Part shown: positions 18,773 through 46,080 of the stretch, piece by piece | Layout: each line of letters opens with the position of its first letter | How positions within the stretch are numbered: position 1 is the first letter of the stretch | NCBI GenBank assembly: GCA_024451685.1 | Contig: JAMXCW010000006.1 | Coordinates: forward strand, 5,218 to 69,217 | From: Candidatus Bathyanammoxibius amoris | GTDB lineage: Bacteria > Planctomycetota > Brocadiia > Brocadiales > Bathyanammoxibiaceae | Reading direction: 5' to 3' | DNA: 64,000 nucleotides | Made by a program: the position numbers and the translations under genes | The notes under the pieces: model-generated | Seen by the model: the letters and a program-made list of their open reading frames with translations, nothing else | What the model was told of the DNA's origin: nothing | The model's database searches: none

Positions 18773-18858
18773 TTGGCCATCTGGGGAAACATTCGCGCAA
18801 ATACCAACAAAACGATACATCTCAAAATTGAAAGACTTTACTTGAGGACCGAGACATC

Positions 18859-22111: not shown

Positions 22112-22290
22112 AACACGATTCTCACACAACCCTCAACTACATAGTGTAGCGATGCCGGATATAAATGTCTATATGTTGTATGCTTGAAAATGCAACGGAC
22201 AAAGACACGAGGGTTTTCCAAGGAAGACGTCGCTCTATCTGAGAAATGATAAGGAGAGGTAAGGGTAAGGTGGGTTCTCAAGTAAAGAGG

Positions 22291-23658
22291 TTATTTGAGG
22301 CCGTATTTGTCGAGCTTTCTGTAGAGTGTGCGCTCGCCTATGCCAAGGAGTTTGGCAGATACGCCTCTGTTGCCCTTGGCTGAGGCCAGCGTGTTTTTTA
22401 TAAGGTCTCGTTCCATCTCCTCAAGAGACATTCCCGCCAGCGGTTCCTGCTGGCACACCTTCCCCGCGTCATCCGGAAAAACGTGGCCGGGGATATCTTC
22501 CACACCAAGGGTGTCACCTTGCGCCAGCACCACCATACTCTCGATACAATTTTTTAGTTCTCTTACGTTGCCGGGCCAGGAGTACTGGAGAAATCTCTTT
22601 CTAACCTCAGGTGTCAGGGAATATACCTGTTTACCATACGTCCGCGAATATTCTTTAATAAAGGCCTCTGCCAGGTGGGGTATATCTTCTTTACGCTCCC
22701 TCAGGGGCGGCAACTTGAGACAGACTACGTTGAGCCTGAAATACAGGTCCTCTCTAAACTTCTTCTCCTTCAACAGTCCCTCAAGGTTCTGATTGGTAGC
22801 GGCGATTATTCTGACGTCAACGAGAACCGGCTCGTTGCTGCCGACTTTGATAACCTTTCCGTCATCCACGATTCTGAGGAGTTTTGCCTGTGCCGAAAGG
22901 GGCATGTCTCCTATCTCGTCCAGGAAGAGCGTCCCGCCATGAGCGTACTCAAACTTCCCCTTCCTCCTGGCCACGGCCCCGGTAAACGCGCCACGTTCAT
23001 GGCCAAATAGTTCGCTCTCCAGAAGCCCCTCGGGAATGGCAGCAGAATTCAGCGCCACAAAGACACTGTTCCTCCTGGGACTGCAATTATGAATGGCCCT
23101 GGCTATGAGTTCCTTCCCGGTACCGCTTTCACCCGTGATAAGAACAGTCGCATTCGTCGAGGCGATCCGCCTTACAACGCCCAAAGTGCGCTCCATGCTG
23201 GCACATTTCCCGATAATGCCGGGAAGACCGCTCGCATGTCTTTGGCCTGGTTTGGCCCCCCCTCCTTCAGCCTCATTTCTTGCAACAGACTGCTTCTTAA
23301 CTATTTCATCCGCAACCATTCTGAGTTGATGGATATTAACCGGCTTACTGAGAAACGTAACCGCACCGTTTTGCATGGCCTTAACGGCCGTCTCCACGGT
23401 GCCGTATCCGGTAACCATGACGACACGGACGTCGGGAACGTGTTCCCTGGCCGCCCTGAGTATCTCCATGCCGTCCACGTCTCTCATTACAAGGTCGGTT
23501 ACCACTATGTCTATATCTTCCTGCCGCAGGTGGCCGAGAGCCTCCCGTCCCCCTGTAGCCACAACGCATTTGTAGCCCACCTTCTCCAGGCTCTCCGCGG
23601 TAGCCCTTGCGTGCGCGGCCTCATCGTCAACGACTAATATCCTGGCCTTATATCCCAT
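22291..23658 (-). CDS. Sigma54-dependent response regulator (NtrC family)
   Basis: Receiver domain (ILVVDDE ... DIVVTDLVM), AAA+ domain (GESGTGKE, GAFTGA) and a C-terminal Fis-type HTH. ATG 23658 has an AAGAGG Shine-Dalgarno. Confidence 0.85.
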   Translation of the reverse strand: MGYKARILVVDDEAAHARATAESLEKVGYKCVVATGGREALGHLRQEDIDIVVTDLVMRDVDGMEILRAAREHVPDVRVVMVTGYGTVETAVKAMQNGAVTFLSKPVNIHQLRMVADEIVKKQSVARNEAEGGGAKPGQRHASGLPGIIGKCASMERTLGVVRRIASTNATVLITGESGTGKELIARAIHNCSPRRNSVFVALNSAAIPEGLLESELFGHERGAFTGAVARRKGKFEYAHGGTLFLDEIGDMPLSAQAKLLRIVDDGKVIKVGSNEPVLVDVRIIAATNQNLEGLLKEKKFREDLYFRLNVVCLKLPPLRERKEDIPHLAEAFIKEYSRTYGKQVYSLTPEVRKRFLQYSWPGNVRELKNCIESMVVLAQGDTLGVEDIPGHVFPDDAGKVCQQEPLAGMSLEEMERDLIKNTLASAKGNRGVSAKLLGIGERTLYRKLDKYGLK

Positions 23659-23666
23659 AGAACCTC

Positions 23667-24464
23667 TTAACAACTCCTCCTCAAGGGCAACTGGACGATG
23701 AAACTACTCCCCTTACCCTCTTCACTATTAACAGATACCGTACCACCGTGTTCTTCGACAATACGCTCGACAGTAGGCAGACCGAGCCCCGTCCCGTTAT
23801 TTTTCGTGGAATAGTAGACCTCAAATATTTTCCCGAAGTCCGTACTGCGGATACCGCTCCCGGTGTCGGTCACCTCAATCTGAAGGCTGTCGTTCTTGCG
23901 CGCGGTGCGTATGGAAAGTTTACCCCCTCCAGACATCGCCTGCTGGGCGTTAATCATCATGTTCAGAAGCGCCTGTTTTATCAAATTCGCATCCAACTTC
24001 ACAGGCGGTATGGAAGTTTCATAACACCTGTCTATGACAATATTGTTCCTTCTGGCCTCGGGGGCAATAAAATCAACCACCTCGTCCACCACTTTGTTCA
24101 CGTCGTGTTCCGCAAACCTCGGACGCTCTTCATGTGCAAAGCGCAGGAAGTCGCTCACAACCTCCTCTAACCTTTGCACCTCTCGCTGAAGGTCCTGAAC
24201 CTTTTTCTTTACAACCTCTCCACGGTTGTTTGTGCCGTCACCGACCTCTTCTTCGAGTAGCTGCAGATTAACACTCAGTATGCTCAGGGGATTCCTAATC
24301 TCGTGCGCTAGCCCGAGGGCCAGAGTGTCGAGAGATGGAGGTGGATGACGCAATTTCTTTCCGGTTTTAAGTATATTACTCTTAAGACTTCTTCTTCGGT
24401 AAAGGACGTAAGAAAACGCCGCTACCGTTATTATAACAGCTACGATGAAGAAACTTTTATCCAT
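23667..24464 (-). CDS. Membrane-anchored sensor histidine kinase
   Basis: One N-terminal TM helix, H-box LAHEIRNPL, HATPase N/G boxes (NMMINAQQAM, DTGSGI, GTGLGL). Its stop abuts the response-regulator start. The ORF is open to TTG 24512. Confidence 0.8.
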   Translation of the reverse strand: MDKSFFIVAVIITVAAFSYVLYRRRSLKSNILKTGKKLRHPPPSLDTLALGLAHEIRNPLSILSVNLQLLEEEVGDGTNNRGEVVKKKVQDLQREVQRLEEVVSDFLRFAHEERPRFAEHDVNKVVDEVVDFIAPEARRNNIVIDRCYETSIPPVKLDANLIKQALLNMMINAQQAMSGGGKLSIRTARKNDSLQIEVTDTGSGIRSTDFGKIFEVYYSTKNNGTGLGLPTVERIVEEHGGTVSVNSEEGKGSSFIVQLPLRRSC

Positions 24465-24548
24465 CACATACGTGCCTATGTAAGGCTTGAGCAAGGGGGT
24501 ATTCTTTGGCAATTAATACCCCCTGGCTCATCTAACAAACAGAAGATA

Positions 24549-24764
24549 CTACGACGCTACCCTGGTAACGTTCTGGGCCTGAAGTCCTTTGTCACTATCT
24601 ATAAGGTCAAACTCTACGTTCTCGCCATCTTCAAGGGTCCTGAAACCATCTCCATTGATGCTAGAATAATGAACAAAAACGTCTTTGCCCCCTTCGTGTT
24701 CGATGAAACCAAATCCTTTTTTTGCATCAAACCACTTTACCTTACCGGTGACCCTTGTAGCCAT
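24549..24764 (-). CDS. cspA: Cold-shock protein (CspA family)
   Basis: [15 protein letters not shown] (RNP1) and DVFVHYS (RNP2). The start is at ATG 24764. Confidence 0.9.
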
Positions 24765-24915
24765 TCTAATCTCCTTAATTCTTGAAAATATCAAAAATAA
24801 CAAAAATTAAAAGACCATAAGCAAAAAGACCTGCCTCCCTTTATATTTTCGCACCTCCTGTATAGAAATAGTTAAAAACGGTTTAAAACAAGAAGAACCC
24901 CCCTGGTCGGGTCTG

Positions 24916-27024
24916 TCAGCTTACAGAAGTACTGGCTTCCCGCTCTTTCAATATTGCCTTCCTCGAAAGCCTTATACGTTTCTGGTCATCGATTCCGATG
25001 ACCTTCACCTCTATCTCCTGCCCTACCTTCAGCACGTCGTCAACCTTTCCAACATATTCGTCTGACATCTCAGATATATGAAGGAGTCCGTCCTGACCGG
25101 GAAGGACTTCCACAAACGCACCGTATTCTTTTATGGAAGAAACCTTCCCCTGGTAGATCTTCCCTACCTGCACCTCTTCCGTTATTTTCTCGATGGTCTC
25201 TCTTGCCGTCTCGGCGGCCTCCGCTGATACGGATGATATGGTCACGGTGCCGTCATTTTCTATCTCCACTCTGGCGCCCGTCTCTTCCTGGATTTTCTTG
25301 ACGACCTTGCCGCCCGGGCCTATCACGGCGCCAATCTTATCCGGATTTATCTTTATCCGCAACAGTCTCGGCGCATGCTCGGAAATCTCTTCTCTGGGAC
25401 TGTCCAGGACCTTCAACATCTCTTTAAGTATGTGAATCCTGCCCTCTTTCGCCTGCTCCAGGGCCTTCTTCATTACGTCTTCATCGAGCCAGGGTATCTT
25501 TAAGTCCATCTGAAGGGCGGTGATACCCCTCTGCGTTCCGGCCACCTTGAAGTCCATGTCGCCAAAATGGTCCTCCGTGCCCAGGATGTCGGAAAGGATG
25601 CGCACTTCGTCACCCTCCTTTGCCAGCCCCATAGCTATCCCCGCCACAGGGTCCTTTATCGGCACGCCCGCATCCATCAAACAAAGCGTGCCACCACATA
25701 CGCTGGCCATAGATGAAGAGCCATTGGACTCCAGTACGTCTGACACCACGCGGACGGTGTAAGAGAATTTCTCATGGTCGGGCATCACGGCCTCTAGCGC
25801 GGCCTCCGCCAGGTTGCCGTGGCCGATCTCTCTCCTGGATACGGAGAAGACGTTTTTCACCTCTCCCACGCTGAACGGGGGGAAATTATAGTGGAGCATA
25901 AACTTCTTTGTATACGGCTCATCCAGCCCGTCTACCTTCTGCTCATCCATAGAAGTGCCAAGAGTAACCACCACCAGGGCCTGCGTCTCTCCCCGCGTAA
26001 ACAGCGCCGAACCATGGGTCATGGGAAGAACACCCACCTCACAGGTAATGGGCCTTATCTCATCAAGCCCCCGGCCGTCCACCCTCTTGTTCTCGTTTAT
26101 TATCTGTTCCCTGACGGCCTTACACTCCATCTCGTCGAATAACTCACTTATCTCTGTTCCCGTAATCCTGGCGTCGTCACCCTGAGAGTATTTTTCTACG
26201 ATGGCATTCTGTATCTCGCCCAGCGCATCATCTCTTGCGTGCTTTCCCGGTGTCAGGCTCTTCTCCTTCACCTGGTCATAGGCCTCTTCCCAGATGGCTT
26301 TATGGATTTCTTCGTCTTTTTCAGGCTCGGCCATCACCTGCTGCTTCTCTTTGCCACACAGGTCTATCAGTTCTTTCTGCAACTGCACTATGTCCTTAAC
26401 CCCCAGCTCGGCAAAGACAAGCGCCTGCAGAATGTCTTCTTCAGACATCTCCTTCGCCCCCGCCTCCACCATCAGCATGCCGTCCTCCGTTCCTGAAAGT
26501 ACCAGGTTCAGGTCGCTGGACTGGAGTTCCTCGCTAGTGGGGTTTAAGACAAACTCTCCGTTTACTCTCCCCACCCTGACTGAACCCACCGGGCCAGAAA
26601 AGGGGATTGAGGAGACACAAAGGGCGGCAGAGGCGCCTATCATTGCCAATATGTCCGGATTGTTTTCTTTATCCACGGAAAGTACAACACCCATTACTTG
26701 TAAGTCCTTGCGGTATGTCTTAGGAAACAGCGGTCTTGTCGGCCTGTCTATCATCCTCATGGTAAGTATCTCTTTTGCGCTGGGCCTTCCTTCCCTTTTA
26801 TAGAAACCCCCGGGAAACTTTCCCGCCGCATAGGTCCTCTCCCTGTAATCAACGGTAAGGGGCAAAAAATCGATATCTCTTTCCCGCCCGGACACCGCGG
26901 TCACCAGGACTACGGTACCACCATATTTAACTACAACTGCACCGTCCGCCTGCTTGGCCATCCTGTTCGATTCAATACTCAGCGTTCTGCCACCTATAGA
27001 CTTTTCCACCTTGTGTATAGCCAT
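24916..27024 (-). CDS. pnp: Polyribonucleotide nucleotidyltransferase (PNPase)
   Basis: Two RNase PH domains plus KH and S1 (GKIYQGKVSSIKEYGAFVE); canonical rpsO-pnp linkage. Confidence 0.95.
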   Translation of the reverse strand: MAIHKVEKSIGGRTLSIESNRMAKQADGAVVVKYGGTVVLVTAVSGRERDIDFLPLTVDYRERTYAAGKFPGGFYKREGRPSAKEILTMRMIDRPTRPLFPKTYRKDLQVMGVVLSVDKENNPDILAMIGASAALCVSSIPFSGPVGSVRVGRVNGEFVLNPTSEELQSSDLNLVLSGTEDGMLMVEAGAKEMSEEDILQALVFAELGVKDIVQLQKELIDLCGKEKQQVMAEPEKDEEIHKAIWEEAYDQVKEKSLTPGKHARDDALGEIQNAIVEKYSQGDDARITGTEISELFDEMECKAVREQIINENKRVDGRGLDEIRPITCEVGVLPMTHGSALFTRGETQALVVVTLGTSMDEQKVDGLDEPYTKKFMLHYNFPPFSVGEVKNVFSVSRREIGHGNLAEAALEAVMPDHEKFSYTVRVVSDVLESNGSSSMASVCGGTLCLMDAGVPIKDPVAGIAMGLAKEGDEVRILSDILGTEDHFGDMDFKVAGTQRGITALQMDLKIPWLDEDVMKKALEQAKEGRIHILKEMLKVLDSPREEISEHAPRLLRIKINPDKIGAVIGPGGKVVKKIQEETGARVEIENDGTVTISSVSAEAAETARETIEKITEEVQVGKIYQGKVSSIKEYGAFVEVLPGQDGLLHISEMSDEYVGKVDDVLKVGQEIEVKVIGIDDQKRIRLSRKAILKEREASTSVS

Positions 27025-27094
27025 ATTTTCTCTTCTTCCTACCCTTTCTTCCTACCTGTCTTCACTTGACAAAAAAATACTTCACATTAATTAA

Positions 27095-27376
27095 CTAAAG
27101 GCTCTTTTCGCGAATTCCCAGCTTGCTGATTACCTGCTTATATCTCTCTTTATTCTTCTTACCGAGGTATTTCAGGAGAGAAGACCGCCTGCCAACCATT
27201 TGCAGGAGTCCCCTGCGAGAGGTGTGGTCTTTCTTATGGTCTTTGAGGTGGCCGCTCAAATGGTTTATACGAGCGGTAAGGATGGCAATCTGAACCTCTG
27301 GGGAGCCTGTGTCGTCCGGGTGAGTCTTAAGGTCCTTAATTACTTCCGCCTTACGTTCCTTATCAATTCCCATCAA
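27095..27376 (-). CDS. rpsO: 30S ribosomal protein S15
   Basis: [35 protein letters not shown]. Confidence 0.95.
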
Positions 27377-27451
27377 CTGTATCCTTCAAGATGCCTTCAC
27401 TAAAAGTATGGGATTTTACGGGTTATGCCCCTCTTTTGCAATAGAAAAATA

Positions 27452-29932
27452 TTATCGAGATGCGATCTCAGCGACCACAGCCCTCGTGGAATCTTCCGCC
27501 CGCCGCCTCTCCGGTGCCAAAAACGTCGCGACAAGAAAACGGCCCGTGTGGTACGCAGTGGAGTAACGCCCGTTTTTGTCCTCAAAGCACTGAAGCTTGC
27601 CCTCGAGCAAGGGGCTTTCACCCCAGGAACTTCTCAGTTTAACGAAGTTCTTCCACGCCTGGCGAGCACTCTCCGTGTTGGGGTACTCTGCAACCATGAG
27701 CTTCATCGTGGGCAGGTCCTTCCCGGACTCATATTCCGCAACTACAGCATCGGTCTCGCCGTCCAGGCCAAAGACGTTCTCTTCTATAACCTCGTCACTT
27801 ATATAGATGTTGTCAAGAATTATACTGCTGTGAAAGAACTTAGTTCGCCCCTGAAGCAACCCCTCACCCGGTAAATAGTCCAAAAGCGCAGGCCGTGCGG
27901 ACTCGCCGTGGGGCAACCTCTCAAGGATCGCCACGGCAATATGAACCACCTGCTCCAGATCCACGTCGCTTGAGCCGGGTTCAAGACGGATATAGTGCCT
28001 GCCCTTCCACACCCAGACGTAATTCTCGAACACAGTACCCTCGTCCCCAAGGTAGTACCTCTCTCCCGACCTGTCGTAGCTATACGCCCCGAACGCGTCA
28101 TCGCTTGAGCCAAACGTCCACAACTCAACCAGCACCTCCCTGCCCTCCGGGTCTCCATAACGTGTCACACTCACCTCCCGGTAAGAATACGTGCGGTAGG
28201 GCTCGGCCGCGCCGTCTATATACTCATAAAGGCCGTCTTCCCCTGCATACACACTGGCCTCTGAAAGCATCTTCCATCCACCTATCACCCGCGGAAATAA
28301 ACCCTCCGCCGCCGAGGCAACCGGCATCTCAAATCTTACGGCTAACTGCGGCTGCATACCTTCAACAACGATGGCCGCCTTGCCCACAACGGGACAGGCA
28401 TACTCGCAGAAACCACACCCGTTGCAAACCTCTTCCCTCACGAACGGCCGCATTATCTCACGGCCCTCCCCGTCAGTGTACGTATTAAAATGAATCGCCT
28501 TGGAGGGTACCGGACATACCTCTTCACACACGCCGCAGTTAACGTCGTGCCAGTCCTTCTTGAGGGCGGGCAGTCCCGCATAACCCACCCAGGGTATGCA
28601 GCGACTCCAGTCTATACGCGCCTTGCCTATGGCCGTCTTCTGCTTCTCCGGCAGCTCCAGCGGTTCTATGGCGCCCGAGGGACACACGTGGCTGCACAGG
28701 GTACAGGTATACTCACAGTGCCCTATCCTGGGTATCAGCCTGGGCGTCCACGCCGCCTCCAGACCGGCCTCCATCAGCGTGGGATGCAGTCCGTTCGTCT
28801 TGCACACCTTCATGCACTCCCCGCAACTGACACACCTTGCCAGAAATTCCTCCTCACCCACAGAGCCGGGCGGGCGGATGACCCCGTGTCCCTTGCCGGA
28901 CCTCCAGGGGAAATTGAACCCCAGCATCGGTACGGCGGCAATACCGGCAAAACAGGCTGTAACCAGACCCCTCTTTGAGAGGTCCACCTCACGGAGCTGG
29001 GGGACACCACCGCCCCTGAATCGTATTGCATCGCTGGGGCATACCTCCTGACAGTCCATGCAGAGTATGCATTCCCCCGCCTGAGTGGCCCTTCCTTCCT
29101 CTGTTATACACCCCATCCTGCATCCCTTTTCACACAGACCGCATACCTCACAGTCCTCCCGCACCCTCCTCTGCCAGTGGGCCCCCACAGACGCCAGCGC
29201 CAGCAACGCACCCATCGGACAGAGGTTCCTGCACCAGTACCGTCTGAAGACCAGCCCGAAAGAAACAATGGCCAGGAAAATGACCAGGAAGGCCGAATGG
29301 TTGCGGAAGAAGGGTTCGCGTTCCACAAAAAGCATTTTATCTGAAAGCTCGTGCGCGGGCGCGGCCAATGCGCCCACGACAGGCAGTCCATACATAAAAT
29401 CGAAGATACCCGAGGAAAGCGCCACAACGTATGGATGGACCAGGACGGAATAGACGTTCGTCGCCAGGCTCAGCGGGTCAAACCATCCCACTATCTGCCT
29501 GCTCAGAAAGAGGCTGAGCAGGAGGAAGGCCAGCAGATAATATTTAAGCCGCTTGCCGTTATAGGGCGTCCACCCAGCCTTAGGCTCATCAGTCCGCGAC
29601 CCCTTAAAAATCTTGTCCGTGAGGTCTATCGTGGTGCCGAACGGGCAGACCCACCCGCAGAAGAACCGCCCCATAACCAGGGTCATGGCAATAAGTACCA
29701 GCGCGGGCCAGTACTGGGTTACGAGCTCCCCGGCGGCTACGCTCACCCCCAGGCCGGAGAGGGGACTGAGGCGCAGGAATATATTCCCGTCGGAAAAATC
29801 GGCAGAGGTCAGCGGGTCCAGATATATTAAGAGTATTAGAAACACCGCGAGACTGAGGGCCTGTGACCACTTCCGCAGTTTATACGCCCGGAAAGGTTTC
29901 TTTTTTTCCTGTGACATTTGTCCTACCAGCAT
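27452..29932 (-). CDS. Membrane polyferredoxin (NapH/MauN-like N-terminal half with about six CxxCxxCxxxC motifs) fused to a ~300-aa uncharacterised C-terminal domain
   Basis: FCGWVCPFGT; CEVCGLCEKGC, CILCMDCQEVC, CVSCGECMKVC, CTLCSHVCP, CGVCEEVCP, CNGCGFCEYACP; several TM helices. I cannot assign the C-terminal ~300 aa to a family. Confidence 0.7.
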   Translation of the reverse strand: MLVGQMSQEKKKPFRAYKLRKWSQALSLAVFLILLIYLDPLTSADFSDGNIFLRLSPLSGLGVSVAAGELVTQYWPALVLIAMTLVMGRFFCGWVCPFGTTIDLTDKIFKGSRTDEPKAGWTPYNGKRLKYYLLAFLLLSLFLSRQIVGWFDPLSLATNVYSVLVHPYVVALSSGIFDFMYGLPVVGALAAPAHELSDKMLFVEREPFFRNHSAFLVIFLAIVSFGLVFRRYWCRNLCPMGALLALASVGAHWQRRVREDCEVCGLCEKGCRMGCITEEGRATQAGECILCMDCQEVCPSDAIRFRGGGVPQLREVDLSKRGLVTACFAGIAAVPMLGFNFPWRSGKGHGVIRPPGSVGEEEFLARCVSCGECMKVCKTNGLHPTLMEAGLEAAWTPRLIPRIGHCEYTCTLCSHVCPSGAIEPLELPEKQKTAIGKARIDWSRCIPWVGYAGLPALKKDWHDVNCGVCEEVCPVPSKAIHFNTYTDGEGREIMRPFVREEVCNGCGFCEYACPVVGKAAIVVEGMQPQLAVRFEMPVASAAEGLFPRVIGGWKMLSEASVYAGEDGLYEYIDGAAEPYRTYSYREVSVTRYGDPEGREVLVELWTFGSSDDAFGAYSYDRSGERYYLGDEGTVFENYVWVWKGRHYIRLEPGSSDVDLEQVVHIAVAILERLPHGESARPALLDYLPGEGLLQGRTKFFHSSIILDNIYISDEVIEENVFGLDGETDAVVAEYESGKDLPTMKLMVAEYPNTESARQAWKNFVKLRSSWGESPLLEGKLQCFEDKNGRYSTAYHTGRFLVATFLAPERRRAEDSTRAVVAEIASR

Positions 29933-30201
29933 ATCACCTTATCGGAGTCAAAGATGAGCTTAATCATCTCATCATAATCAATCGAAGGATACGGCAACTC
30001 TACGGCCCGGGCCGCGGCGTCGTCCTTTAACACCATAGTCTTCAGCCCTTTAAGGCGGTCTTCCGCGGTCAACACCGCGTCATGTATGAGTAACACGGCC
30101 AGATGACCGTCCCCTGCCGCGGAGTTTTTGCCGGCCTGGTCAACGGCCGTCGAGATGGCAAGCGCGTGGTCCTTTTCTTTGATTACGTGGAGCGTCTTCA
30201 T
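29923..30201 (-). CDS. DsrH/TusB-like protein
   Basis: 92 aa, ending ...SDKVICW, third in a DsrE/F/H-sized trio. It overlaps the polyferredoxin start by 10 nt. Confidence 0.55.
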   Translation of the reverse strand: MKTLHVIKEKDHALAISTAVDQAGKNSAAGDGHLAVLLIHDAVLTAEDRLKGLKTMVLKDDAAARAVELPYPSIDYDEMIKLIFDSDKVICW

Positions 30202-30202
30202 G

Positions 30203-30553
30203 TTATTGCCAGGGTATTACCCTGTCCGCGTTCGCAAGCATTTCTATTACCCGTTCACCGGGTAATATCTCAGCCTCTGCACCTAATTCGTTGATACCCC
30301 TTTTCTCAAGAGATTCCTTCTCCGCCACCACCCTGTGCCCGAGGAGCCGCAGGGCGTCCAGATGTTTATATATTATTCCCGACTCTATCAGCCCGGGGTC
30401 TGTCCTGCGGAGCAGGTGCACGCCGTCGCCCATGAACAAGACCGTTACCTTATTGTCTTCCTCCAGGGTAAGGCCCACCGACATGCGAAGCCCCTCCGAA
30501 TTTCTGAGCGTGTTGAACGGGGGCCTATGTATTATAACGACCACGTCTGCCAT
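30203..30553 (-). CDS. DsrF/TusC-like protein
   Basis: DsrE-family fold landmarks (VVVIIHRPPFNTLRNSEGLRMSVGL, VLFMGDGV). There is a 1-nt gap to the dsrH-like start. The ORF is open to TTG 30577. Confidence 0.55.
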   Translation of the reverse strand: MADVVVIIHRPPFNTLRNSEGLRMSVGLTLEEDNKVTVLFMGDGVHLLRRTDPGLIESGIIYKHLDALRLLGHRVVAEKESLEKRGINELGAEAEILPGERVIEMLANADRVIPWQ

Positions 30554-30618
30554 AAGATTTTGCCGTCTAAAGAACAATTGTGTATCGAGTGGGGGGGGCT
30601 GCCGGATTGCTCCTGAAA

Positions 30619-30927
30619 CTAGTTAAAGGATAGAAAGCGGTCAGAGTCTTTTACCAGGGAAGCCAGGTCGTACTGGCTGCCCCAATGCACAAAGTCCTTC
30701 CTCTCCACCTTGCGCTCCACGGCGTTATGGGCGCATACCACCACCCTTACCCCCCTTGCCGAGAGTTCGGCCAGCCGGGAGTCCTCCAGGTGGTACACTC
30801 CGTCGCACATAAGGAACATCTCCACCGCAATCCCCGCCTTCAGGGCCGCCTCTGCCAGCCGTACCACCGTATGGGTGTTCTCACTCTCCGGGCTGGTGGT
30901 TAGAAGAATGCCCAACTTTTTATTCAT
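30619..30927 (-). CDS. DsrE/TusD-like protein with a conserved Cys
   Basis: LGILLTTSPESENTHTVVRLAEAALKAG, FLMCDGV, and VVVCAHNAVERKV (Cys at the position of the DsrE/TusD active-site Cys). Confidence 0.6.
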   Translation of the reverse strand: MNKKLGILLTTSPESENTHTVVRLAEAALKAGIAVEMFLMCDGVYHLEDSRLAELSARGVRVVVCAHNAVERKVERKDFVHWGSQYDLASLVKDSDRFLSFN

Positions 30928-30972: not shown

Positions 30973-31001
30973 ATAATAACACCGAACCCAAACGTAGTCA
31001 A
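30973..31001 (-). promoter_or_regulatory. Sigma70-like promoter TTGACT-N17-TATTAT (read on the minus strand)
   Basis: Located about 45 nt upstream of the dsrE-like start and downstream of a GC-rich hairpin that follows folC. Confidence 0.4.
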
Positions 31002-40582: not shown

Positions 40583-41686
40583 ATGATTATCGGCGTACCT
40601 AAAGAAACAAAGGCGGACGAGTACAGGGTAGCCCTCATACCGGTGGGTGCCGAGGAACTGGTGAAACTGGGGCATACGGTCCTGGTGGAAGAGGGCGCCG
40701 GGCTTGGCAGCAGCATCACCGACGGGGAATACTCAAGGGTGGGGGCAAAGCTGGTCAAGAACGTGGAACGTGTCTTCTCTGACGCGGATATGGTGCTCAA
40801 GGTGAAGGAGCCCCTGCCGGAGGAGTATACCCTTCTCCGGGAGGATTTAATAATCTTCACCTTCTTTCACTTCGCGGCCTCAAGAGAACTCATCGATGCG
40901 GTTGTGAAATCAAGGTCTGTGGCAATCGCCTATGAGACCGTGAGGGACGAGCGTGGGGGCCACCCGCTGCTGACGCCCATGAGCGAGGTGGCGGGGCGGA
41001 TGTCCATACAGCAGGGGGCGAAGTATCTGGAGAAACCGATGGAAGGGAGGGGTATCCTCCTGGGCGGGGTCCCGGGGGTAGCCCCCGCGGAGGTGGTGGT
41101 GATAGGCGGCGGCATTGTCGGGACCAATGCGGCGAAGGTGGCCGCCGGCCTGGGGGCAAGGGTCTCGATTATGGACATCAATTTGGACAGGCTGAGGTAT
41201 CTCGACGATATAATGCCCAAAAACGTCATCACCCTCATGTCAAACGCCCAGAATATAAGAGAGCGGCTCAGGGAGGCCGACCTGCTCATCGGCGCCGTAC
41301 TCATAGAAGGGGCACGGACCCCGGTGCTTATTACGAGGGATATGGTAAAGACGATGAAACAAGGCGCGCTGATAGTCGACGTATCCATTGACCAGGGCGG
41401 CTGCATCGAGACCAGCAGGCCCACCACACACACCAAACCCACCTTCATGGTCGACGGGGTGCTGCACTACTGCGTGACCAACATGCCCGGCGCGGTAGGC
41501 GGCACGTCTACCTACGCGCTGGCCAATGCCAGCCTGCCGTACGTGGTAGAGATAGCGGACAAGGGATACGAAAAGGCGGCGTCGGAAAATCCGGCCGTAA
41601 GATGTGGACTAAACATCGTAAAAGGAAAAATCGTCAACAAGGCCGTGGCGGAGGCATTCGGTCTAACACATCATGACACCTTCTAA
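40583..41686 (+). CDS. ald: Alanine dehydrogenase
   Basis: MIIGVPKETKADEYRVALIP; NAD fold VVVIGGGIVGTNAAK. Confidence 0.9.
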   Translation: MIIGVPKETKADEYRVALIPVGAEELVKLGHTVLVEEGAGLGSSITDGEYSRVGAKLVKNVERVFSDADMVLKVKEPLPEEYTLLREDLIIFTFFHFAASRELIDAVVKSRSVAIAYETVRDERGGHPLLTPMSEVAGRMSIQQGAKYLEKPMEGRGILLGGVPGVAPAEVVVIGGGIVGTNAAKVAAGLGARVSIMDINLDRLRYLDDIMPKNVITLMSNAQNIRERLREADLLIGAVLIEGARTPVLITRDMVKTMKQGALIVDVSIDQGGCIETSRPTTHTKPTFMVDGVLHYCVTNMPGAVGGTSTYALANASLPYVVEIADKGYEKAASENPAVRCGLNIVKGKIVNKAVAEAFGLTHHDTF

Positions 41687-42512
41687 GTGGCGATACATAG
41701 AGGACGACGGCTCCCCGGCCGGCTTCGGGCTTGCGGCGGACGAATACATTGCCAAAAAACTCTGCGCGTCGCCCTATTCCCACATAATCAGGCTCTACAC
41801 GTACAAAGGGCCGTGTGTCATGGTGGGCAGGTTTCAGGACGTTGACTCAGAGGTCAATCTCTCCCGCTGCAGAGAATTACCGGGCGTAGAAATAAACCGC
41901 AGGCCGACCGGCGGCGGCGCAATCGTCATGGGAGAGGGACAACTGGGCGTAGCCATAGCAGGTCCCATGAAAGAGAAAGACCGGTCACCGCTTCTGGCGT
42001 CAAAGGCCGTGTTAAGCCCCTTCACAAGGGGAATAATCGCCGCGTTTGGGCTGATGTGCCTTCAGGCATGGTTCCGGCCGGAAAATGACATCTGCATAAG
42101 AGACAAAAAGATAGCCGGGCTTGCCTCCTGCTGTCTGGACGAAGGTACTGCCGTGCTCTACCACGCAAGCATACTGGCGGATATGGATACCGGCCTGATG
42201 CTGGACCTCTTAAAAAAGCCGGGGGAAAAACCGGGTAACAAGAAAGGTGGTGCAATAACCACCGTCTCCAGCGAACTGGGCAGGCATGTCAGCACCGATG
42301 AACTAAGGGACTATGTTAAAAGAGGCATTGAAAAAACCCTTCACGCCGAGTTCATACCGGAGCCGCTAACCGAAAAAGAACTGGCAGAGGTAAAAAACCT
42401 GGAACAAAAAAAATATAGTAACACGGACTGGATATATCATGGAAAAGAGCACCCAACACAAAACTCGCGCAAACAACTGGAGATTGCCGCGGGGTTACGC
42501 CCCTCGCAATGA
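41673..42512 (+). CDS. Lipoate-protein ligase / octanoyltransferase family (BPL_LplA_LipB) protein
   Basis: RRPTGGGAIVMGEGQLGVAI and KIAGLASC (catalytic Lys context). It overlaps the ald stop by 14 nt. Its last ~10 codons run into a repeat element. Confidence 0.65.
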   Translation: MTPSKWRYIEDDGSPAGFGLAADEYIAKKLCASPYSHIIRLYTYKGPCVMVGRFQDVDSEVNLSRCRELPGVEINRRPTGGGAIVMGEGQLGVAIAGPMKEKDRSPLLASKAVLSPFTRGIIAAFGLMCLQAWFRPENDICIRDKKIAGLASCCLDEGTAVLYHASILADMDTGLMLDLLKKPGEKPGNKKGGAITTVSSELGRHVSTDELRDYVKRGIEKTLHAEFIPEPLTEKELAEVKNLEQKKYSNTDWIYHGKEHPTQNSRKQLEIAAGLRPSQ

Positions 42513-42570
42513 CAAAGGACGAGAGCATCCAGCACAAGCTTGTCATTGCGAGCGAAAGCGAAGCAATCTC
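42487..42570. repeat. Hairpin/inverted-repeat element (CGCAATGACA ... TGTCATTGCG plus ATTGCGAGCGAAAGCGAAGCAAT)
   Basis: 10-bp inverted-repeat arms at 42505-42514 and 42541-42550, plus an adjacent ATTGC/GCAAT stem. Confidence 0.6.
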
Positions 42571-42579
42571 TGATTCCTA

Positions 42580-43722
42580 ATGACAGTGGACGTGCACACC
42601 CAACACAAGACCCATACACACAGCACACAATACCCTGAATCCGTCAAGACCAGCCTCGCGTCCGCCCTGACCCTGAGGTTTCTCTCCGGCAGGTTCTACC
42701 GTGATGCCCGGAATTTCTGCGTAAACCTCCTGCTAAACTACCCCGACGACTGCAGGGCGAACTGCGCATACTGCGGTCTCGCGCGTTCGCGGCCCCGGGG
42801 AGAAGATTCCTTCATCCGTGTAGACTGGCCCGTGTTAAGGACCGGCGACGTACTGGACAGGCTCTCAAGATACCGTGATACGGTCCGGCGAATCTGCATC
42901 TCAACCGTCTTTCACCCCCGTGCAGTTGAAGACACCATTAACCTCGCCGGGGCCGTGCGCGCGGCGGCGGTGGACGTCCCGCTTTCTGTGTTAATTACGC
43001 CCGGCCTGTTCAGCCTCGGGGAACTTGGGGAGTTAAAAATTCTTGGGGCGGATTACCTGGGCGTCGGGCTTGACGCCGCCTCGGAGAGGGCGTTTGAACT
43101 GACGCGCGGTTCCCGCGTCCGCGGCCCGCTCAGCTGGGCCGATTACCTCGACACCCTTAGGGGCGGTGTAGAGGTTTTTGGAAAAAAACGAGTGAGCTGC
43201 CACATCATGGTGGGCATCGGGGAGACGGACAGGGAACTGGCCGAGTGTTTTTTTCAGGTGCATGCCATGGGGGTGCTGATACACCTGTTCAGCTTTTACC
43301 CTGAGCCGCATTCCCGGATGTCCCGGCGGAAGCGGCCCGCCCTGAAGAGATTCCGCCGCGCGCAACTGCTGGCCTGTCTGGTGGAACGGCATCTTATAGA
43401 ACAACCTGACGTCGAGTTTGACCCGCGGGGCAGACTCATCCGTATTAAAGACTCTGTAAAGGAGATTGTGGAAGAAGCTATTAAAGACGGGAGACCCTTT
43501 GTGACCGGTGGATGCCCCGACAGAGACGGCGATATCGGCTGCAACCGTCCCTTTGGCAGCTACCGTCCGGGTGAGTCCTTCAGAGACTTCCCGTTCCACC
43601 CGGCGCCGGAAGACCTTGGGCGCATAAAGAGAGAACTAAGACTGGACGAGCTTTTTGGAGCGGGCACAAAAACCGGCCGCCGAAGACGACCGATACCCCG
43701 TCCTACGTCTATTGTAGAATAA
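42580..43722 (+). CDS. Radical SAM protein, biotin-synthase-like (possible LipS-type lipoyl synthase component)
   Basis: CRANCAYCGLA (CxxxCxxC) about 60 aa from the N-terminus; a TIM-barrel-sized core; sits next to the lipoate-ligase-family gene. Confidence 0.6.
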   Translation: MTVDVHTQHKTHTHSTQYPESVKTSLASALTLRFLSGRFYRDARNFCVNLLLNYPDDCRANCAYCGLARSRPRGEDSFIRVDWPVLRTGDVLDRLSRYRDTVRRICISTVFHPRAVEDTINLAGAVRAAAVDVPLSVLITPGLFSLGELGELKILGADYLGVGLDAASERAFELTRGSRVRGPLSWADYLDTLRGGVEVFGKKRVSCHIMVGIGETDRELAECFFQVHAMGVLIHLFSFYPEPHSRMSRRKRPALKRFRRAQLLACLVERHLIEQPDVEFDPRGRLIRIKDSVKEIVEEAIKDGRPFVTGGCPDRDGDIGCNRPFGSYRPGESFRDFPFHPAPEDLGRIKRELRLDELFGAGTKTGRRRRPIPRPTSIVE

Positions 43723-44480: not shown

Positions 44481-45425
44481 ATGAAAAAGAAAACAAAGAA
44501 GAAGCCTGCAGTTAAAATTAACGCTAAGGGCAGAAGAACGACATTATACAACTTCCCAAAAGAGCCTCTTGAATTTTACATCTCTGAAGATACAGCCTCT
44601 TACGGCAGGAAAAAGCCGTTCTCTATATATTACGATGCCCCCGAACACTCTATACGGCTGCTAAAAGGTGATTGTATAGAAATACTGAATCAAGCAAGGG
44701 AAAACTCTGTAGACATGATTTTTGCCGATCCTCCTTATTTCCTCTCAAACGGTGGTATTACCTGTCATGCAGGTAAGATGGTTTCTGTAAATAAAGGTAG
44801 CTGGGACAAATCTAAGGGGGTAGAGCAGAACCACCTATTCAATCTCGAGTGGCTCAAGGCTTGCCAGCGTGTTTTAAGAACTGATGGGACTATTTGGGTT
44901 TCCGGAACCACCCACATCATCTACTCGGTCGGCTTTGCCATGCAGGAACTTGGCTTCAAAATTCTTAACGACATTATATGGTACAAGCGTAATGCCCCCC
45001 CGAATCTCTCATGCCGGTATTTTACCCACTCGACGGAGGTTGTTTTATGGGCAGCCAAAGACAAGAAGAGCAAGCATTATTTTAATTACAAGCTGATGAA
45101 GAAATTTAATAATGGTAAACAAATGCGGAACGTGTGGCAACTTTCTTCGCCCCCAAAGGTAGAAAAGAAGCATGGTAAGCATCCAACACAAAAGCCTGTT
45201 GGACTTTTAGAAAGGATAATACTCGCTTCAACCAAAAAAGATGACCTTGTACTAGATCCCTTTTGTGGCAGCTCGACAACAGGGGTTGCCGCGGTTTTGT
45301 TGAACAGGAAGTATGTAGGGATTGATTTGGAGGCGGAATATTTGTGTCTTTCTAAGAAACGTTTAAAAGAGGCAATTGAAAACCCGTCTTTATTCCCGCT
45401 TGAAGAGGCAGTGTCTGTTTGCTAG
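44481..45425 (+). CDS. Beta-class DNA methyltransferase, probably N6-adenine (DpnA/Dam-beta-like)
   Basis: Motif IV IFADPPYFLSNGG precedes motif I LDPFCGSSTTG (beta permutation). DPPY favours m6A. Confidence 0.85.
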   Translation: MKKKTKKKPAVKINAKGRRTTLYNFPKEPLEFYISEDTASYGRKKPFSIYYDAPEHSIRLLKGDCIEILNQARENSVDMIFADPPYFLSNGGITCHAGKMVSVNKGSWDKSKGVEQNHLFNLEWLKACQRVLRTDGTIWVSGTTHIIYSVGFAMQELGFKILNDIIWYKRNAPPNLSCRYFTHSTEVVLWAAKDKKSKHYFNYKLMKKFNNGKQMRNVWQLSSPPKVEKKHGKHPTQKPVGLLERIILASTKKDDLVLDPFCGSSTTGVAAVLLNRKYVGIDLEAEYLCLSKKRLKEAIENPSLFPLEEAVSVC

Positions 45426-45459
45426 TTCAGCGTTAACCCTTATAAATAACGAATGCTAT

Positions 45460-46080
45460 ATGGAACGGCAAGAAGCTATCAAGAGGATATCTACTATAAT
45501 CGGTAAGGATCTTCGTAAACTTGCTAAAAAGTATAGGGTAACTGTCTTCAAGTGTGGAAAAAAGAATAAAGGCTGGGCGGGCCATGTTGTAGAGCGTCAC
45601 CTGGGGCTACCTTTAAATTCATCCAGATCACCGAACTTTGGCTCTTGGGAATTAAAGGTTATTTCTCTGAAATACCTCAAAAGCGGGGCACTTACCGTTA
45701 AAGAGACAATGGCAGTAACAATGATTGACCCTTATAATGTTGCTAGGACGCAGTTCGAACACAGCCATTTATTGAATAAGATGAGAAGGATGTTGCTACC
45801 CGGAAGGATTTGGGAGAATAAGGAAGAGACATTTTCATTACTTTATGCTGCAAAGACATTTGATTTAAATGACCCTGAGATATATAAGCAAGTAAAAGCG
45901 GACTATGATTTAGTCCGAAATACAATAATCAATAAAGGTTTTTCGGCATTAACCAGCAAAATGGGTGTATTTATTCAACCACGGACAAAAGGTCCGGGAC
46001 ATGGAAGCACATCGAGGGCCTTTTACGCACGAACGTCTTTTCTGAAAAAAATCTTTTTCCCTCCCGATTCAGGTAAATAA
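45460..46080 (+). CDS. MutH/Sau3AI-family type II restriction endonuclease
   Basis: Collinear with E. coli MutH as I recall it: KNKGWAGHVVERHLG (MutH KGWIGVLLEIWLG), FGSWELKV (MutH LGVELKT), HLLNKMRRML (MutH HKLKRVLW), FIQPRTKG ... FYARTSFLKKIF (MutH LQIRPKA ... FYLKKNF). Confidence 0.75.
   Translation: MERQEAIKRISTIIGKDLRKLAKKYRVTVFKCGKKNKGWAGHVVERHLGLPLNSSRSPNFGSWELKVISLKYLKSGALTVKETMAVTMIDPYNVARTQFEHSHLLNKMRRMLLPGRIWENKEETFSLLYAAKTFDLNDPEIYKQVKADYDLVRNTIINKGFSALTSKMGVFIQPRTKGPGHGSTSRAFYARTSFLKKIFFPPDSGK
46016..46080 (+). repeat. Direct repeat copy 1 (the last 65 nt of the endonuclease gene)
   Basis: 58 of 65 positions are identical to 46486-46550 by my count. Confidence 0.85.

Follow-up and report, generated by a model that had tools for sequence, protein, structure and literature searches.

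The window, i.e. the whole 64,000-nt stretch of Candidatus Bathyanammoxibius amoris DNA analysed here, carries on its minus strand three small genes of the DsrE family (g1 to g3) that run into a gene for a large membrane polyferredoxin (g4), followed by rpsO and pnp. All four ORFs were confirmed at the coordinates of the initial annotation, and the features of the locus are as follows:

30973..31001, minus strand: sigma70-like promoter candidate upstream of g1 (TTGACT-17-TATTAT, TG-extended; 10/12 match)
30619..30927, minus strand: g1, DsrE/TusD-like subunit, 102 aa, with the invariant Cys65
30203..30553, minus strand: g2, DsrF/TusC-like subunit, 116 aa from ATG, no conserved Cys
29923..30201, minus strand: g3, DsrH/TusB-like subunit, 92 aa, no conserved Cys
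27452..29917, minus strand: g4, predicted NapH-NapG fusion polyferredoxin with a C-terminal DUF6599 domain, 821 aa from the corrected start
27095-27376, minus strand: rpsO, conserved downstream neighbour of the polyferredoxin in Brocadiales
24916-27024, minus strand: pnp, likewise conserved downstream of the polyferredoxin in Brocadiales; the rpsO-pnp block spans 24916..27376

The mechanical ORF of g2 begins at TTG 30577, and its start was set to ATG 30553 by ortholog alignment. On the longest ORFs the four genes are separated by a 65-nt gap, a 1-nt gap and a 10-nt overlap, with g4 extending to 29932 (27452-29932, 826 aa). Since all 26 aligned homologs of g4 begin at the equivalent of ATG 29917 (MSQEKKK), we assign g4 821 aa and a start 5 nt past the g3 stop; the junction sequences of three related loci (L007, L009 and L018; L numbers denote the loci compared) also support this start. 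The two gaps and the 826-aa ORF described initially are real, but the g3/g4 overlap is an ORF-calling artefact and the protein from the conserved start is shorter. The promoter ascribed to the operon exists as a site, and dsrE of L018 is preceded by a similar element (TTGACG-17-TATTAT); however, promoter-like sites are not above chance in the region (3, versus 2.0 +/- 1.4 in shuffles), and a second one lies between g4 and rpsO (27441-27413). No homolog of tusA, thiF, thiS, gcvH or dsrMK was detected in the window by tblastn, and a scan of 34 window ORFs showed neither dsrAB nor dsrC.

By their profile matches, the products of g1 to g3 are an E-F-H type trio of DsrE-family proteins with an active-site Cys. 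HMM searches matched g1 and g2 to Pfam DsrE (44 bits, 2.6e-11, and 50.5 bits, 2.9e-13, respectively) and g3 to Pfam DsrH (26 bits against a cut-off of 24.4), and chains A, B and C of PDB 2HY5 were the structural counterparts, in agreement with the DsrE/F/H-like trio initially proposed. The sole PDB match of g2 was DsrF (2hy5_B), while the g3 family profile matched TM0979 (2e-05), full-length DsrH (2hy5_C, 4.4e-05) and TusB (2d1p_C, 0.01), and the g1 profile reached TusD of 2D1P with an E value of only 0.017. All scores lay below equivalog level (g1, TIGR03012, 19.9 bits against 89.25; g2, TIGR03010, 36.9 against 94.15; the trio's third model, TIGR03011, 31.3 against 49.2), and none of the trio proteins has a signal peptide.

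Cys65 of g1 is invariant in 77 of 77 orthologs and aligns, in a PDB profile search, with Cys78 of A. vinosum DsrE (2hy5_A) and of E. coli TusD (2d1p_A), which bears out the DsrE/TusD active-site Cys noticed in g1; g1 therefore does not lack the conserved Cys column. Ortholog alignments revealed no other conserved Cys in the trio. The VICW end of g3 had been likened to that of DsrH/TusB, but its Cys91 is Cys in only 14 of 69 orthologs (Ser in 42 of 69), and where 2hy5_C has the Cys of the DsrH motif LESCLKF, the aligned g3 profile has no Cys. The conserved Cys of A. vinosum DsrH is Cys20.

The sulfur-relay heterohexamers DsrEFH of A. vinosum (PDB 2HY5; sulfur oxidation) and TusBCD of E. coli (PDB 2D1P; tRNA 2-thiouridine) also consist of three paralogous small subunits, in the order E/D, F/C, H/B, with a single essential-type Cys at the Cys78 position of the E/D subunit. 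The trio differs from them in i) its scores, far under the equivalog cut-offs, ii) the length of g1 (102 aa, versus about 130 aa for DsrE/TusD), iii) its H-like subunit, which unlike that of DsrEFH has no conserved Cys, and iv) its surroundings, where neither dsrAB/dsrC nor tusE/mnmA was seen and the neighbours are either ThiF, TusA and ThiS or an LplA-like plus a LipS2-like gene. TusBCD works with TusA upstream of it and TusE/MnmA downstream; TusA is encoded next to 59 of 80 related trios but not in the window.

The g4 product is, judged by its domains and motifs, a NapH/NapG-type membrane polyferredoxin with a C-terminal DUF6599 domain. It matches Fer4_5 and several Fer4 families in Pfam and has five predicted TM helices and six [4Fe-4S] sites (four CxxCxxCxxxC motifs and two split four-Cys motifs), so that the NapH/MauN-like helices and about six clusters first recognised in it are borne out. 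Its parts, all on the minus strand, are:

29018..29917: NapH-like part with four predicted TM helices (hydropathy, K/R distribution); Fer4_5, 62 bits
28910..28996: internal Tat-like motif (DLS[KR]RG, invariant Arg) and fifth hydrophobic helix (alignment, hydropathy)
28364..28888: NapG/MauM-like domain with four [4Fe-4S] motifs
27455..28345: DUF6599 domain (PF20244), ~297 aa

The NapH-like part has two CX3CP motifs (C87/C91 and C229/C233) and two predicted cytoplasmic [4Fe-4S] motifs (C256-C266 and C283-C293), and its Cys columns and motifs are invariant across 27 homologs. The NapG-like domain has invariant Cys at 362/365/368/372, 401/405/408/412, 440+461/464/468 and 498/501/504/508. The Tat-like motif and fifth helix occupy the position of the signal region before the NapG match (model 43-205 = residues 349-523); since the NapH and NapG parts are fused, the NapG signal has become an internal helix, and the NapG-like domain may be exported through it. 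Most of g4, including DUF6599, is predicted to be extracytoplasmic. Matches were below the NapH cut-off (TIGR02163, 66 bits against 213) and the NapG cut-off (NF007012, 79.9 against 269), with 72 bits for TIGR00397.

With the NapGH quinol dehydrogenase of periplasmic nitrate reductase, MauMN and NosGH, g4 shares the NapH features (four TM helices, a pair of CX3CP motifs, two clusters on the cytoplasmic side) and the Tat-like motif and four-cluster domain of NapG, but it carries both parts in one polypeptide and has the additional DUF6599. The flanks of eight related loci, like the window itself, showed no napA, mauA or nosZ. In the framework of Meheust et al. (2021, PMC8238504), NapH-like proteins are modular conduits through the membrane, proposed to pass electrons to or from modular oxidoreductases outside the cytosol. 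Systems of this kind such as NosR and PceC (PMC8238504) have, like g4, a Fer4_5 (PF12801) membrane Fe-S protein, but there a flavinylated FMN-binding domain, on the same protein or on a partner, stands in the place of the NapG-like polyferredoxin and DUF6599 of g4.

The last ~300 aa of g4, at first unrecognised, match PF20244 (88.3 bits, gathering threshold 27, E 6e-25), and several g4 homologs are named "DUF6599 family protein" by NCBI; the domain itself is nevertheless uncharacterised. It is widespread, with 2461 cluster representatives, most of them proteins of ~300 aa that bear signal peptides. In g4 it is predicted to be an alpha/beta domain (AF2 pLDDT 94.5) with no conserved Cys or His, and the fold comparison proposed for it gave no PDB match at E<1e-3. 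Stand-alone DUF6599 genes have a gene for a Tat-signal DUF362 protein directly downstream in 41 of 76 loci, and such a gene lies immediately upstream of the polyferredoxin gene in L003, L006 and L007. DUF6599 most likely docks to or serves this Tat-exported protein.

The polyferredoxin family (more than 1000 hits) is found in all anammox genera, and its gene is always followed by rpsO-pnp; L001-L008 retain the order polyferredoxin-rpsO-pnp-csp-HK-RR. The upstream genes vary across these loci (aminotransferase, DUF362, ChrB), and L007 has a native 565-nt region upstream of the polyferredoxin. Only the Scalindua-type loci L001 and L002 have ApbE in the vicinity, and molybdopterin, Mau and NosZ genes are missing from both the window and the flanks of L001-L009. 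In seven other Brocadiales loci, tblastn showed no trio within 6 kb of the polyferredoxin.

The trio, for its part, usually stands in Planctomycetota between a LipS2-like radical SAM gene and two M16 peptidase genes. Trio synteny was followed in L010, L011, L014 and L015 and in a survey of 80 loci. Among 11 Planctomycetota trio loci, nine run on into M16 peptidases, eight are preceded by the LipS2-like gene and one (L018) continues into the polyferredoxin; LplA-like and LipS2-like genes together lie directly 5' of the trio in eight loci, including that of Scalindua rubra. ThiF and TusA are the usual neighbours in other phyla, and the neighbours counted over 80 loci were ThiF (62), TusA (59), ThiS (19), LipS2-like (9), M16 (9) and polyferredoxin (1). 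The frequency of the ThiF-type E1 suggests a sulfur acceptor other than in TusBCD. In Chloroflexi and Thermodesulfobacteriota the subfamily adjoins a DsrMK-like membrane redox protein and GcvH-like, LplA-like and LipS-like genes, dsrMK-like probes matching 4 of the 80 loci, all in other phyla; because of these neighbours, a link between sulfur relay and membrane redox is a real theme of the subfamily.

The sHdr-LbpA sulfur oxidation system employs DsrE3/TusA transferases and sLpl(AB)/LipS1/LipS2 for lipoate assembly (PMC11094781, PMC10332631). As in that system, L012 and L063 co-localise genes for DsrE-family transferases, TusA, GcvH-like, LplA-like and LipS-like proteins, and Planctomycetota co-localise LplA-like, LipS2-like and trio genes. 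The transferase is, however, an E-F-H trio and not DsrE3, and the redox partner in loci of the L012/L063 type is DsrMK/HdrDE-like and not HdrABC-like. Of the sHdr-LbpA-type partners, only two are encoded in the window, ~12 kb from the trio (41673..43722) and next to a low-GC restriction-modification insert:

41673-42512, plus strand: LplA-like lipoate ligase (Pfam, NCBIfam; 102 bits against a cut-off of 280)
42580-43722, plus strand: LipS2-like radical SAM protein (best match NF053743, E 2.6e-55; 188 bits against a cut-off of 270)
44481..46080, plus strand: restriction-modification pair (N6_N4_Mtase and MutH/MvaI_BcnI) of low GC (0.424), at the synteny break after LipS2

The second product is called LipS2-like only, because its score is under the NF053743 cut-off. 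The two window proteins share 44-76% identity with those encoded upstream of the relatives' trios, and in L010, L011, L018-L021, L023, L025 and L026 the trio immediately follows their orthologs.

At the junction in the window, the dsrH stop is followed by gacaa and the ATG of MSQEKKK, a spacer of 5 nt. The identical dsrH-polyferredoxin junction is present in an independent assembly (L009, GCA_030623695.1), and MAG SCS1bin.38 (L018), whose lineage shares about 80% protein identity with that of the window, has the trio and polyferredoxin joined at the same place with a 105-nt spacer. The gene order is thus conserved in one other genome (L018) but otherwise not. An assembly chimera of genes not adjacent in the real genome, to which the apparent metagenome-assembled origin of the window and the synteny break exactly on a gene boundary might point, is highly improbable given the identical junction in GCA_030623695.1 and the same order, with a different spacer, in L018.

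We consider it likely that two separate modules were placed in one transcription unit by a recent, lineage-specific rearrangement. The first (g1-g3) would be a cytoplasmic DsrEFH/TusBCD-type sulfur-relay complex, by analogy probably a heterohexamer in which the DsrE-like subunit carries a persulfide at Cys65. Genes of this subfamily normally stand alongside those for ThiF-type E1 enzymes, TusA and ThiS-type carriers or, in Planctomycetota, for the LplA-like ligase and the LipS2-like, presumably sulfur-inserting, radical SAM enzyme, and the complex would supply sulfane sulfur to cofactor or carrier-protein thiolation. The second (g4) would conduct electrons across the membrane as a single polypeptide of the NapH+NapG type. 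Its membrane part has the CX3CP motifs and, as in NapH, probably a quinol site; two [4Fe-4S] clusters would lie in the cytoplasm and four outside it, and an extracytoplasmic DUF6599 would form the end. Polyferredoxin-rpsO-pnp would have been joined downstream of dsrH in a common ancestor with MAG SCS1bin.38; in Candidatus Bathyanammoxibius amoris the spacer would then have shrunk to 5 nt and the LplA-LipS2 block would have become separated from the trio, g4 now probably depending on the trio's promoter. Set against a view of rearrangement alone, selection for co-expression is conceivable, because the adjacency occurs in two lineages and was tightened to 5 nt in the window.

It is also possible, though improbable, that the trio is a dedicated sulfur donor for Fe-S cluster building or repair or for sulfur insertion, serving the LipS2-like lipoyl synthase and, since the rearrangement, incidentally the six-cluster polyferredoxin; any coupling would then lie in biogenesis and not in catalysis. 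The LplA-like and LipS2-like genes directly upstream of Planctomycetota trios would fit this, as would the GcvH, LplA and two radical SAM genes beside the trios in L063, and LipS-type enzymes insert sulfur (PMC9585515, PMC10332631). Against it, the commonest trio neighbours are ThiF and TusA and not Fe-S enzymes, and the polyferredoxin link occurs in two lineages only. DsrEFH-type proteins are also not known to supply Fe-S assembly.

The functional unit of the initial annotation, in which a persulfide relay serves a membrane redox module, is not supported by the comparative evidence, trio and polyferredoxin having different partners elsewhere. In such a unit the cytoplasmic [4Fe-4S] domain of g4 would reduce or oxidise a persulfide or polysulfide (or selenium) carried on the DsrE-like Cys65, which we consider unlikely, and there is as little likelihood that sulfur trafficking is thereby linked to the quinone pool or a periplasmic partner. 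The 5-nt spacer in the fused operon, the only plausible nearby promoter being upstream of g1, the adjacency kept in L018, the DsrMK-like membrane Fe-S/CCG proteins adjoining homologous trios at four loci of other phyla, and the cytoplasmic two-cluster ferredoxin domain, which could in principle meet the trio, all speak for it. However, the trio leads into M16 peptidases in 9/11 Planctomycetota loci and into a polyferredoxin in 1/11, seven other polyferredoxin loci are without a trio, and polyferredoxin homologs (>1000 hits) far outnumber those of g2 (32). Moreover, the specific partner of DUF6599 is most likely the Tat-exported DUF362 protein, most of g4 is predicted to lie outside the cytoplasm, where the trio, lacking signal peptides, would not follow, and NapH-type proteins lack a disulfide or persulfide site of the CCG type. 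The idea of a functional unit is weakened yet retains a small probability, because Cys65 is invariant among g1 orthologs and L018 has the genes in this order.

On the reading of two modules joined by rearrangement, functional coupling of trio and polyferredoxin is unlikely. The polyferredoxin-DUF6599 protein and the Tat-exported DUF362 protein may, tentatively, form a redox module outside the cytoplasm that has so far gone unrecognised and that all anammox genera share. There is only a slim chance that the fusion is a real new coupling within a small Brocadiales sub-lineage, in which the relay trades sulfane sulfur with the cytoplasmic Fe-S domain of a NapGH-type conduit; if so, it would represent a membrane-linked sulfur redox unit analogous to DsrEFH-DsrC-DsrMK, built on a NapH-type scaffold.

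Four consecutive minus-strand ORFs were found where the initial annotation had placed a trio of DsrE-family genes (g1 to g3) running into a membrane polyferredoxin gene (g4, polyFd):

30619-30927, minus strand, g1, DsrE/TusD-like ORF of 102 aa
30203-30553, minus strand, g2, DsrF/TusC-like ORF of 116 aa, counted from ATG
29923-30201, minus strand, g3, DsrH/TusB-like ORF of 92 aa
27452-29932, minus strand, longest ORF of g4, 826 aa

The reported 10-nt overlap of g3 and g4 is an artefact, since all g4 homologs in an alignment of 27 start at the equivalent of MSQEKKK and the alternative upstream ATG (29932) falls within the g3 codons V-I-C-W. In the window DNA, gacaa separates the g3 stop codon TAG from the ATG at 29917, giving a predicted g4 protein of 821 aa and a spacer of 5 nt. 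L009 (GCA_030623695.1), which was assembled independently, carries the identical junction, and an assembly chimera was rejected.

In Pfam searches, g1 and g2 both matched DsrE; g3 matched DsrH at 26 bits, barely over threshold. The top NCBIfam models were TusD/DsrE for g1, TusC/DsrF for g2 and TusB/DsrH for g3, with scores far under the equivalog cut-offs (19.9 vs 89, 36.9 vs 94 and 31.3 vs 49, respectively). In single-sequence phmmer searches of the PDB, a true relative was obtained for g2 only (DsrF, 2hy5_B), while g1 and g3 gave chance matches and required family profiles. The g1 ortholog profile matched YchN, DsrE (2hy5_A) and TusD (2d1p_A), and that of g3 matched TM0979, DsrH (2hy5_C, full length, 4.4e-05) and TusB. 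The active-site Cys proposed for g1 was borne out: Cys65 is invariant (77 of 77 orthologs) and aligns precisely with Cys78 of DsrE and TusD in the profile alignment. No conserved Cys was found in g2 in the ortholog alignments (69–77 sequences). The C-terminal VICW of g3 had been likened to the end of DsrH/TusB; the kinship stands by the profile matches, but only 14 of 69 orthologs have the terminal Cys. Because of the profile matches and the single invariant Cys, the trio is, as judged from sequence, a true DsrE-family set of the E-F-H type in which one Cys is of the catalytic kind, and it makes up a subfamily separate from canonical DsrEFH and TusBCD. Identification as true DsrEFH or TusBCD was rejected, as the equivalog cut-offs were failed and the DsrH Cys is missing.

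The NapH-like transmembrane region and [4Fe-4S] motifs attributed to g4 were recovered by Pfam (Fer4_5 and many 4Fe-4S families), NCBIfam (NapG and NapH models top-ranked, both under cut-off) and alignment. Full-length homologs (41–79% identity) occur in Brocadia, Kuenenia, Scalindua, Anammoxibacter and other Brocadiales. Alignment of the 27 homologs and hydropathy analysis gave the following layout: 1) a K/R-rich N-terminus and four TM helices bearing two invariant CX3CP motifs; 2) a predicted cytoplasmic segment with two CxxCxxCxxxC motifs; 3) a DLS[KR]RG motif (with invariant Arg) and hydrophobic helix 5; 4) a NapG-like domain carrying four cluster motifs, all of them invariant; and 5) DUF6599. 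This layout marks g4 as a fusion of NapH and NapG, with the Tat-type signal of the NapG part turned into an internal helix, and by the positive-inside rule residues from ~337 to the end would be extracytoplasmic. AF2 modelled full-length g4 poorly (pLDDT 63, Fe-S parts <50), and this model was left out of the fold search. NapH-like proteins have been described as modular transmembrane electron conduits for extracytosolic oxidoreductases (PMC8238504), and g4 fits this picture, bearing a NapG-like wire and DUF6599. In the literature searched, no description of the NapH-NapG-DUF6599 protein of anammox bacteria was found. In loci of the Scalindua type, the gene for an ApbE flavin transferase of 554 aa lies 2–4 kb upstream of polyFd (L001 559-2223, L002 2832-4496), in L002 adjoining a NIR_SIR/DsrE-like (DrsE_2)/JAB/TusA cluster; a link to flavinylated NapH-like systems is possible.

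The C-terminal part of g4, at first thought to match nothing, scores as DUF6599 (PF20244, 88 bits, E 6e-25) and therefore belongs to a recognised but uncharacterised family. A word-index homolog search with these 297 aa alone returned zero matches, which reflects a limit of that index, since exhaustive HMMER with the same segment found 2461 cluster representatives, mostly stand-alone proteins of ~300 aa with signal peptides or lipoboxes. The AF2 model of the domain, built on 84 sequences, was good (pLDDT 94.5), and Foldseek against the PDB gave nothing at E<1e-3; the best resemblances, weak and of low TM (PknH sensor, Dip2269, TiME and RseB), are extracytoplasmic sensor or ligand-binding domains, and no fold family was assigned. 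Internal duplication was unsupported (hhalign probability 3%). Conservation falls on Tyr, Gly, Glu, Trp and Pro and on neither Cys nor His, which makes one of the usual redox cofactor sites unlikely. A gene for a DUF362 protein with a Tat signal directly follows stand-alone DUF6599 on the same strand in 41 of 76 metagenome loci (L096-L175), sometimes with a second DUF362 gene after the pair, and such a gene lies directly upstream of polyFd in three Brocadiales (L003 4838-5854, L006 4678-5667 and L007 4447-5436). DUF6599-DUF362 (Tat) thus seems to be an extracytoplasmic gene pair that is conserved but undescribed. DUF362 is in the same Pfam clan as the N-terminal domain of LarA (PMC11770544), and DUF6599 was not mentioned in the literature searched.

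The order polyFd-rpsO-pnp-csp-histidine kinase-sigma54 regulator is kept in seven other Brocadiales loci (L001-L008, L008 being a second contig carrying the protein of L007), with variable genes upstream of polyFd (aminotransferase, DUF362, ChrB) and, by tblastn, no trio within 6 kb. The block (window 20357-29917 and L001-L009), in which csp is a cold-shock protein gene and a ribonucleotide reductase gene may follow, extends from Scalindua to Brocadia, with the upstream side of polyFd as the recurrent break point. A 79%-identical relative has a native region of 565 nt there.

Only 32 clusters of g2 homologs were found. Two genomes with 79% and 59% polyFd homologs carry the trio at another site, in the order DeoC-metalloenzyme-(AlaDh)-LplA-like-radical SAM-DsrE-DsrF-DsrH-M16-M16, and closer relatives (81% and 79%) likewise run on into M16. 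Neighbour clustering and probe searches of 80 trio loci, one genome per species (Brocadiales and other Planctomycetota, Chloroflexi, Nitrospinota, many Methanoperedens, Poribacteria and others), gave as neighbours ThiF-type E1 (62 loci), TusA (59), ThiS (19), a PALP enzyme (15), LipS2-like (9), M16 (9), and GcvH with DsrMK-like (4). PolyFd was a neighbour in one, L018 (Brocadiales MAG SCS1bin.38, ~80% identical), with the order DeoC-metalloenzyme-AlaDh-LplA-LipS2-DsrE-DsrF-DsrH-polyFd-rpsO and a 105-nt spacer before polyFd. In Methanoperedens (L030-L088), the order ThiF-TusA-DsrE-DsrF-DsrH is strict in nearly all sampled genomes (offsets ~-1340 and -540 nt), which suggests that these archaea share a conserved module for activating a sulfur carrier. 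A Thermodesulfobacteriota MAG (L063 2766-13885, CAZCTP010000015.1) has a cluster of ThiS-ThiF-PALP-JAB-two DsrE-F-H trios-TusA-DsrMK-like fusion (643 aa; Nitrate_red_gam, Fer4 and CCG)-GcvH-like-radical SAM-LplA-like-LipS2-like radical SAM-TusA-ThiF; L012/L027, L029 and L092 are listed with this type. Its LbpA/sLpl/LipS-type genes lie beside a membrane HdrDE/DsrMK-like protein instead of sHdr.

In the window, the orthologs of DeoC, metalloenzyme, AlaDh, LplA-like and LipS2-like lie 12 kb away from the trio and on the opposite (plus) strand. Two of them directly precede the trio in relatives:

41673-42512, plus strand, LplA-like
42580-43722, plus strand, LipS2-like

The block ends at a low-GC restriction-modification pair (44481-46080, N6_N4 DNA methylase and MutH/MvaI_BcnI-like endonuclease, GC 0.42), which occupies the exact post-LipS2 site where relatives have the trio and is likely a mobile insertion at the synteny break. 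Elsewhere in the window (13899-15101 and 17288-20343) are a radical SAM/SPASM protein resembling the heme b synthase AhbD (TIGR04545, 452 bits vs cut-off 500) and two adjacent B12-binding radical SAM paralogs of 494 aa each, beside an O-methyltransferase and a tandem Usp protein.

The simplest history would have three steps: i) polyFd-rpsO-pnp became attached downstream of dsrH in the ancestor that the window organism shares with L018, ii) ~31.0-44.2 kb was inverted, parting LipS2 from the trio, and iii) the dsrH-polyFd spacer shrank to 5 nt. The inversion is suggested by gene order, and no inverted or flanking repeats were found at its presumed end points. The promoter ascribed to g1 holds in part: a promoter-like element is present and resembles that upstream of L018 dsrE, but the scan finds no more sites than chance. 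Since its native upstream region is lost, g4 is probably transcribed from this element.

The trio-g4 operon is best read as a lineage-specific accident of genome order, in which two unrelated modules were probably fused by rearrangement. Conservation gives no support to the functional unit first proposed, seven polyFd loci lacking the trio within 6 kb and one of 80 trio loci having polyFd. A biogenesis-type link between the two is unlikely. True catalytic coupling is less likely still; it keeps a small probability because two lineages retain the adjacency and because, in other phyla, members of the trio subfamily sit beside another kind of membrane redox protein. Nothing was found that speaks to the suggested part in selenium metabolism.

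Taking the two modules separately, the analogy with DsrEFH and TusBCD makes a cytoplasmic heterohexamer, with Cys65 of g1 as persulfide carrier, the most likely form of the trio, and DUF6599 of g4 probably docks a Tat-exported DUF362 protein. The ThiF, ThiS and TusA neighbours point to sulfur delivery by the trio for protein thiocarboxylate formation, and the LplA-like, LipS2-like and GcvH-like neighbours to lipoate-related sulfur insertion. The latter context is similar to that of sHdr-LbpA systems, with their sulfur transferases and genes for lipoate assembly (PMC11094781, PMC10332631).

Tight, seemingly translationally coupled gene pairs may come from recent rearrangement, and comparison with relatives is advisable. 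If true, the proposed unit would be a new wiring of sulfur trafficking to the membrane, which the evidence makes unlikely. The value lies mostly in the anammox-wide NapH-NapG-DUF6599 protein, a single chain adjoining rpsO-pnp in every anammox genus sampled, in its recurrent DUF362 (Tat) association as a testable lead to the partner of DUF6599, and in the contexts of the trio subfamily, whose repeated ThiF/TusA and LplA/LipS2/GcvH links suggest a route of sulfur supply for carrier-protein thiocarboxylation or lipoate assembly in anaerobes, Methanoperedens, Nitrospinota and Brocadiales among them.
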